From IMG/VR virus record IMGVR_UViG_2713896783_000029: 7,735 bases of DNA; one strand, given 5' to 3'. Every line of letters begins with the position of its first letter. The stretch's first letter is position 1. The stretch is from a virus (lineage: Duplodnaviria; Heunggongvirae; Uroviricota; Caudoviricetes). The notes under the pieces were generated by a model. That model was not told the DNA's origin and did no database searches. It was given only the letters and a program-made list of their open reading frames with translations. This document shows positions 3,173 through 3,296 of the stretch, in pieces. Both the position numbers and the translations under genes were made by a program.

Positions 3173-3296
3173 CAGTTAACATGTTAACTGGCTGCCCGGG
3201 CATTTTTGCGGTTTTTATCTTTATTATTCAGTTTGTTGTGCGGAAAAAATGTTAACAGGCTTTTTCAGCAAATGTTAACCAGGCAGCAGTTAACAT
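3173..3296. promoter_or_regulatory. cos-like intergenic region with an array of GTTAAC-core repeats (candidate TerS binding sites) and a T-tract block
   Basis: Perfect 18-bp palindrome CAGTTAACATGTTAACTG at 3173-3190. Further ATGTTAAC / GTTAACAT units at 3249-3258, 3272-3281 and 3287-3296, the last two as an inverted pair. That is five GTTAAC hexamers in about 120 bp. Between them are a palindromic TGCCCGGGCA and phased T-tracts (3201-3240). Located between HNH and terS. Confidence 0.4.

Follow-up and report, generated by a model that had tools for sequence, protein, structure and literature searches.

The 288-bp gap between the HNH endonuclease gene and terS (positions 3083-3370) in the 7,735-nt stretch of phage DNA analysed here (the window) is probably the cos of an HK97-style, HNH-assisted packaging module that generates 3′ overhangs, and the five GTTAAC-containing units within it probably form the recognition array of the small terminase subunit, TerS. 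Recognition by TerS is the reading that follows from the published DNA ends, the conservation of the motif and the co-variation of the motif with the DNA-binding domain of TerS. The kind of element is already known, as is the cohesive end of the Stx-phage lineage, which has been published as a 10-nt sequence only; what is new is the motif, the way it goes with a single TerS family, its derivation from the terS start codon and its occurrence in PICI-like islands. In a literature search, no publication was found that connects GTTAAC to terminase or cos for phages of the window's kind.

Gene layout of the window

The window comes from a lambdoid prophage that belongs to the long-tailed Stx-phage group, and represents its late region. 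Ninety-four GenBank phage records were 95-98% identical to positions 2700-3950, among them phage 2851, BP-4795, 1717, YYZ-2008 and many Stx1a, Stx2a and Stx2c prophages, and no cos annotation was present in the phage records inspected. A KilAC antirepressor gene (312-1007) is followed by an Rz-like ORF, a lipoprotein-like ORF with a TonB C-terminal domain (PF03544; 1930-2271), a divergent minus-strand ORF for a YlcI-like ribbon-helix-helix protein (DUF3950; 2403-2735) and the plus-strand HNH endonuclease gene (PF01844; 2717-3082), the final gene ahead of the putative cos. On the other side of the gap lie terS (3371-3934, plus strand, GTG start; PF03592, Terminase_2), terL (3931-5592, plus strand), encoding ATPase and nuclease domains (PF03354 and PF20441), and a protease-capsid fusion gene (5656-7593). 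The flanking genes HNH, terS and terL were found where an earlier note on this DNA, made from the sequence before any database search, had put them. The PF03592 match of TerS (E=4.5e-8) covers residues 2-57, the Terminase_2 DNA-binding region, and the protein resembles the solved SF6-type TerS DNA-binding domains 4zc3 and 2cmp, both as weak matches. Within the late region, the TonB_C lipoprotein-like ORF falls after the lysis genes and ahead of cos. Three masked runs of exactly 50 N each (1258-1307, 1521-1570 and 2529-2578) break ORFs of the Rz region and the DUF3950 ORF, so that ORF calls across these runs are unreliable.

The GTTAAC array between the HNH gene and terS

GTTAAC starts at positions 3175, 3183, 3251, 3274 and 3289 of the window, a cluster spanning 3175-3294 that holds five of the eight copies in the window, where 1.18 copies would be expected over the entire length. 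The base composition of the gap (3083-3370) predicts 0.065 copies (Poisson P(>=5) ~9e-9), and no more than three were obtained in any of 20,000 shuffles of the same region, confirming that the cluster is far above chance, as had been claimed. All five copies extend to the 8-mer ATGTTAAC or GTTAACAT, an extension that the three copies outside the cluster in the same window do not have. The 8-mer ATGTTAAC starts at 3181, 3249 and 3272 on the plus strand, and GTTAACAT, which is ATGTTAAC on the minus strand, starts at 3175 and 3289.

The organization described in the earlier note, a perfect 18-bp palindrome, two further units and a terminal inverted pair, was present in full. Counted from the predicted left end of the virion DNA (+1 at 3142; see below), the repeats occupy +32 to +155 and terS starts at +230. 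The palindrome CAGTTAACATGTTAACTG (3173-3190, +32 to +49) contains site 1 (3175-3180) and site 2 (3183-3188), and site 3 is a plus-strand ATGTTAAC at 3249-3256 (+108 to +115). Site 4 (plus-strand ATGTTAAC, 3272-3279, +131 to +138) and site 5 (minus strand, GTTAACAT, 3289-3296, +148 to +155) lie in the left and right arms, respectively, of a perfect 12-nt inverted repeat (3268-3279 and 3289-3300), the arms of which are 9 nt apart. The spacings between successive sites are 8, 68, 23 and 15 bp, with no obvious helical phasing.

Sites 2 and 3 are separated by a T-rich spacer (3191-3248, plus strand), which is part of an insertion of ~182 nt relative to relatives with a short leader. The palindrome TGCCCGGGCA (3193-3202) and the T-runs that had been noted in this spacer (3203-3207, 3212-3216 and 3220-3222) are present in the sequence; the T-runs are 8-9 bp apart, not 10-11. 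No intrinsic terminator-like site was found in the HNH-terS gap, and a terminator composed of TGCCCGGGCA and a T-run was rejected on this ground and on the ground that the palindrome is not kept in the satellite islands described below. A consensus scan for IHF sites (WATCAANNNNTTR), which is a weak test, detected none with <=1 mismatch in 3083-3370.

Cut site and ends of the virion DNA

Zhang et al. 2021 induced the Stx1 phage Lys8385Vzw and, using PhageTerm, assigned it to cos packaging with the 3′ ends CGCCCCCCCT (PMC7946995). The record of this phage (MT225100) is near-identical to the window phage and keeps all five GTTAAC copies; it begins with CTCACGCAGAGAAAAAATTCCCGTTTCAGGGCAGTTAACATGTTAACTGG, at the equivalent of window position 3142, and ends with ...GGACACCGCCCCCCCT (longer: ...CGATCGCTCCGGACACCGCCCCCCCT), at the equivalent of 3141. 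The left end of the packaged DNA is therefore predicted at 3142, by homology to Lys8385Vzw and not for the window prophage itself, and the predicted overhang is a 10-nt 3′ end at 3132-3141, CGCGCCCCCT, with one mismatch to the published CGCCCCCCCT. The ends of the near-identical phage lie 32 bp to the left of the palindrome, in agreement with the proposal that the cluster occupies the cos position of HK97-like genomes. The proposal that the repeats themselves are a candidate cos or terminase recognition site stood in part: the gap has the features of a cos region and the repeats those of a cosB-like array, whereas the cut (cosN equivalent, 3126-3159) would lie upstream, outside the segment that the earlier note had singled out.

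The cut-site core GGACAC/CGCGCCCCCT (3126-3141, plus strand) was delimited from the record ends of Lys8385Vzw, D3 and HK97. It is followed by CTCACGCAGAGAAAAAAT (3142-3159, plus strand, +1 to +18), the 18 bases with which the left end of the virion DNA begins, a conserved segment that includes an A-tract at +11..+17 and is common to loci with different TerS types. The IMG/VR contig L119 starts exactly at the equivalent of 3142 and L145 one base earlier, and two contigs of the high-GC clade described below (L234 and L241) start at the base homologous to 3142. Among GenBank phage records, none besides Lys8385Vzw breaks at 3141/3142; most of them are prophage-derived and cut at att.

Upstream of the cut, a G-run (3090-3096, plus strand, ~-52 to -46 from the cut) may serve as a cosQ-like or other upstream cos element. 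It was present in all loci of types A and B (defined below), in all satellite loci and in most high-GC loci. The palindromic box CGATCGC (3116-3122, plus strand), which lies between the G-run and the cut, is invariant in a 4-way alignment including Salmonella phage FSL SP-016, common in types A and B, and retained only in part by the satellites, as CGAATAAG. An overhang of 10 nt implies a bottom-strand nick at AC/CG, both in the window (3129-3133) and in the right end of HK97 (L011:820-833). The HNH enzyme encoded adjacent to cos in Bacillus phage γ nicks AC/CG (PMC3592412), and this parallel with the one phage hints that the HNH protein may make the bottom-strand nick. In the PPompW prophages (L003:2546-4004, ~window 3092), the IS110-family element ISEc20 adjoins the cos G-run, and the stretch from the lysis genes up to and including HNH is absent, leaving the order tRNAs, IS, cos, terS; these look like defective prophages with the left cos half intact.

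Conservation of the array in phage relatives

Loci of relatives were collected from IMG/VR; a scan of genome contigs with a single TerS sequence gave no match. Relatives with five sites, the TerS of which is 64-99% identical to that of the window, were termed type B. Exactly five GTTAAC copies were found in each of the 46 distinct IMG/VR upstream sequences in this range of TerS identity. When 47 distinct phage-type variants were compared, none of the 30 hexamer positions varied, against 24 of the 111 other positions in 3160-3300 (Fisher p=0.002). The window-type cos is carried by ~24% of complete E. coli genomes. Among the checks that had been suggested for the cos proposal, the mapping of virion ends and the comparison of the repeats among relatives turned out in its favour: the PhageTerm ends of the near-identical phage fall in the HNH-terS gap, and all type B loci have five GTTAAC copies, with near-identical spacing in the satellites.

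Satellite islands carrying the same cos

The window-type cos was also found in two islands of ~11 kb, one in an IMG/VR contig (L158, 1-10915) and the other in E. coli F2_407_2_2 (L212, 2085-13240), where it is inserted at tRNA-Pro between yejM and yejO. The islands carry genes for an integrase, Icd-like proteins, DUF4222, primase/helicase, SSB and PerC, and they also encode a gpE-like capsid protein, a gpD-like decoration protein and a Nu1-like winged helix-turn-helix (wHTH) protein, with cos located at the end of the island. They lack HNH, terL and a terS of the window phage's type, and the DNA beyond cos is non-coding up to the host gene yejO. All 30 hexamer positions are identical between the satellites and the window, compared with 72-74 matches at the 111 other positions (p ~2-4e-5), and the site spacing is that of the window save for one 1-nt indel. 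The satellites also keep the G-run, the cut core and +1..+30, and their similarity to the window stops just after site 5. These bounds of homology naturally delimit the functional cos to roughly 3090-3300. The T-runs of the spacer are partly kept in the satellites, and the TGCCCGGGCA palindrome is replaced by unrelated sequence, which speaks against the functional part that the earlier note had given it. The satellite variant of cos is carried by ~50 of 5,426 complete E. coli genomes, including strain 042; a second cos copy is present in only ~20 of these ~50 genomes, many of which are clonal, which makes the figure uninformative on whether satellites and type B prophages reside together.

The cos PICI EcCICFT073 also carries capsid and decoration genes, and its Rpp protein pairs with the helper TerS and redirects it to a PICI-specific cosB unlike that of the phage (Fillol-Salom 2018, 2019). 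As L158 and L212 encode a Nu1-like wHTH protein of their own, they may not rely on helper TerS alone; the islands may either use the helper TerS sites unchanged or need both proteins. By themselves the satellites do not settle which protein binds GTTAAC, but the inferred requirement for the sites in cis is not weakened by the Nu1-like protein. The left-end core CTCACGCAGAGAAAAAAT also occurs at two other loci, L141 (cut at 8727) and L156 (cut at 8648), where the sequence upstream of the cut is divergent, no terminase genes follow downstream, and units resembling GTTAAT/TGTTAA are repeated (GTTAATGTTGTTAAT). These two loci may represent further satellites, adapted to a helper whose TerS is related.

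Association of the motif with the TerS N-terminal domain

Salmonella phage FSL SP-016 and ~25 IMG/VR loci, relatives from Enterobacteriaceae, have a short leader, with a distance from cut to terS of only ~65 bp, and were termed type A. Their TerS is 40-48% identical overall to that of the window and nearly the same at the N-terminus. The element GT(A/T)AAC-N2-GTTAAC (GT(A/T)AACATGTTAAC) lies at +34..+47 of these loci, over the terS start, and translation of terS begins at its ATG (ATG TTA ACA = Met-Leu-Thr); two loci have GTTAACGTGTTAAC with a GTG start. The right half of the window palindrome (site 2) is orthologous to this ATG TTA ACA start. In the window lineage, the ~182-nt insertion after the palindrome element adds three sites, the ancestral Shine-Dalgarno sequence is lost, and terS now starts with GTG CTG ACA. 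FSL SP-016 and the type A loci all lack the part of the insertion bearing TGCCCGGGCA (3191-3248). The ancestral terS ATG of the window opens an ORF of 24 codons (3181-3255) for a hydrophobic peptide, MLTGCPGIFAVFIFIIQFVVRKKC, with its stop codon within the third GTTAAC. This ORF is kept in the phage variants and truncated after 4 codons in the satellites; the peptide is probably a by-product, less probably a small membrane peptide with a role.

A more distant group, termed the high-GC clade, comprised 80 IMG/VR loci with a GC content of 50-65%, the TerS of which starts with MALTEQKR as in Pseudomonas phages IME307 and BR322a. These loci have 1-3 GTTAAC copies ~13 bp apart, directly before and over the terS start, at a density of 17.7 per kb in -80..+20 vs 0.28 per kb elsewhere in the loci, and their cut cores are partly different from that of the window. 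The last site uses TTA for Leu, a rare choice that IME307 and BR322a make for ~2-3% of the Leu residues encoded by genes nearby. One high-GC locus, L259, with a TerS starting with MPMTKQKR, has no GTTAAC and carries two copies of ATATACC at about -45 to -1 of terS; this may be another switch of motif. Part of the conservation of the short-leader sites could be translational or coding, as they overlap the Shine-Dalgarno sequence and start and the first terS codons.

Four further loci (L119, L149, L152 and L187), termed type C, share the left-end core CTCACGCAGAGAAAAAAT with the window; their cut core is related to that of the window, and their TerL shows 48% identity to the window TerL (E=6e-176). 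Their TerS matches that of the window only in the last ~30 residues, which may be the part that contacts TerL, and has an unrelated N-terminal domain. An HNH homologue was detected in one (L149) of the three type C loci with upstream sequence, and ORF translations suggest it in the others. No GTTAAC was present in the four loci; at ~+40..+52, in the place of the GTTAAC palindrome, they carry a conserved palindrome, GCGAACTTTCGC, which may be the equivalent site for the type C TerS. More copies of GCGAAC/GTTCGC occur inside terS of type C. As type C keeps the cut core and TerL/HNH without GTTAAC, the motif tracks the TerS N-terminal domain rather than HNH or TerL, a contrast drawn from these four loci. 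On these sequence comparisons, the most economical interpretation is that TerL/HNH recognise the cut core and that the HTH domain of the window's TerS family recognises the GTTAAC units.

Alternative explanations for the repeats

It is unlikely that GTTAAC is instead bound by the YlcI-like (DUF3950) ribbon-helix-helix protein, the HNH protein or TerL, with TerS reading, for example, the conserved +1..+22. A site of the latter kind would resemble that of HK97 TerS, which is nearer the cut (+15..+29) and has an A-tract, as the window has at +11..+17. The DUF3950 gene lies beside every five-site (type B) cos examined and beside none of the one-site type A loci, so the three extra type B sites co-occur with it, and its product may act at these three. 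However, GTTAAC occurs with no DUF3950 gene nearby in FSL SP-016, the type A loci, the high-GC relative IME307 and the satellites, and this gene distribution disfavours the YlcI-like protein, the other binder that the earlier note had considered. For HNH and TerL, the retention of +1..+18, the cut core and TerL/HNH of the same clade in type C, where GTTAAC is lacking, argues against either as the reader. An action of the cluster through host IHF, Fis or HU or through intrinsic curvature, as at λ I1, with GTTAAC being incidental, is very unlikely. The T-runs in the 68-bp spacer between sites 2 and 3, in part retained by the satellites, would suit it, but the spacing of these runs and the lack of an IHF consensus in the gap do not, and the hexamer is conserved across Escherichia, Salmonella and Pseudomonas phages and high-GC uncultured viral contigs, which points to a phage-encoded reader.

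That the sites are mainly an operator for terS expression, bound by TerS or another protein at the Shine-Dalgarno sequence and start codon, with the type B array a relocated regulatory region, is improbable, and such a function and packaging recognition are not mutually exclusive. The short-leader and high-GC sites flank or overlap the Shine-Dalgarno sequence and start codon of terS, and a σ70-like match is found on the minus strand at 3278-3249. Yet a DNA-binding protein at the start would not block translation, the type B sites are 77-196 nt upstream of the real terS start with the ancestral Shine-Dalgarno sequence destroyed, and the satellites keep five sites though neither terS nor any other gene follows. 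Least probable of all, and hardly to be expected, is that the repeats arose as tandem copies of the terS 5′ end (ATG TTA ACn = Met-Leu-Thr), have since degenerated and are now functionless debris. The orthology of site 2 to the short-leader terS start codon fits such an origin, and the stretch of 26 nt that follows site 4 agrees with the terS 5′ end at 14 positions (14/26; uncorrected p ~0.003, for the unit at 3272 only); the local alignment of leader and terS is nevertheless not significant, its score being reached by 14 of 500 shuffles. Moreover, neutral debris would not hold 30 of 30 positions while a third of their neighbours change, nor would it persist in satellites or reappear as 13-bp-spaced arrays in the high-GC clade. 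Duplication may account for how the repeats arose; it does not account for their having been maintained.

Proposed role of the array

How TerS proteins read DNA is still debated. For the TerS recognition array proposed here, the terminase, presumably with the help of the HNH protein, would cut GGACAC/CGCGCCCCCT/CTCACG to leave the overhang 3132-3141 and the left end at 3142. The five ATGTTAAC units would be bound by the N-terminal helix-turn-helix of the Terminase_2-type TerS; we infer this binding to GTTAAC, as well as its stoichiometry and geometry. TerS, and through its C-terminal tail TerL, would thereby be held beside the cut, and packaging would start rightward into terS-terL. The GTTAAC array would then do the job of λ cosB or of the HK97 TerS site at +15..+29.

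We also consider, as a tentative and on balance doubtful extension, that GTTAAC is an ancient portable label of one HTH TerS family. Its primitive position would be on the ribosome-binding site and start of terS, where it could couple recognition to expression; the number of five would have arisen by a ~180-nt expansion of the leader in Stx phages, and the array would have been copied by EcCICFT073-like islands that, contrary to the Rpp strategy, keep the cosB of their helper, with Stx prophages of EHEC as the helpers.

The general picture of cos packaging is unchanged by these findings. A defined array of ~210 bp (3090-3300) would allow transduction assays of the cos-plasmid or cosmid type for long-tailed Stx phages, and would help to predict pairs of helper prophage and satellite in packaging in EHEC and other E. 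coli. The loci with 1, 2, 3 and 5 hexamer copies, together with those having another palindrome where the domain is swapped, provide a natural comparison of DNA reading by HTH-type TerS.

Comparison with known packaging systems

The λ cosB (R3-I1-R2-R1), to which the earlier note had likened the cluster, is bound by gpNu1 with IHF, and its repeats anchor TerS for initiation. λ has 16-bp R sites and the IHF site I1. As in the window, short repeats in both orientations are located between the cut and the small-terminase gene, and a longer spacer splits them into two groups. The likeness holds for these multiple repeats and not for the remainder: the TerS of the window matches no Pfam family but Terminase_2 (PF03592) and the predicted overhang is a 10-nt 3′ end, whereas λ has a winged-HTH TerS of the Nu1 type and a 12-nt 5′ overhang, and no IHF consensus accompanies the window repeats.

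The islands L158 and L212 are like PICIs of the EcCICFT073 type in having int, replication genes, gpE- and gpD-like genes, a Nu1-like wHTH gene and a terminal cos. They differ in the cos itself, which in EcCICFT073 consists of a λ-type cosQ/cosN and its own cosB read by Rpp-TerS, and in L158 and L212 of an HNH-type cos and five units of the helper type.

The record of Pseudomonas phage D3 ends with ...GGACACCGCGCCCCCA, in which the 15-mer GGACACCGCGCCCCC is identical to window 3126-3140. The phage reportedly has 9-nt 3′ ends. Its HNH gene, orf96, is the last gene, like the HNH gene of the window, and a G-run is found at the same distance upstream of the cut. Unlike the window, D3 has TerS and TerL of other types (TerL 21% identical, BLASTP E=3e-11) and a 36-bp leader without GTTAAC.

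The gene order of the window is that of HK97 (gp1 TerS, gp2 TerL, gp74 HNH), in which cos lies between HNH as the last gene and terS-terL as the first genes. The window has the HNH adjacency, the TerL_ATPase/TerL_nuclease type and, by homology, the 3′ cos ends of an HK97-like module; its TerL is 23% identical to HK97 gp2 (BLASTP E=6e-11). The HK97 record ends with ...GACCGCCGCCAAA, with a G-run ~45-50 bp upstream of the cut as in the window. HK97 has a 10-nt 3′ overhang, and its TerS binds one 15-bp site at +15..+29. This site and the window array are both to the right of the cut, the window candidate being five dispersed 8-mers. HK97 TerS has no HTH domain and reads its DNA site as the DNA leaves the central tunnel, unlike the Terminase_2 TerS of the window with its N-terminal HTH region.

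The TerS of the window belongs to the same family (Terminase_2) as G1P of SPP1 and SF6. SPP1 and SF6 package by the headful (pac) mechanism, with boxes flanking the cut on either side and without an HNH partner, and G1P reads multiple short boxes with its N-terminal HTH domain.
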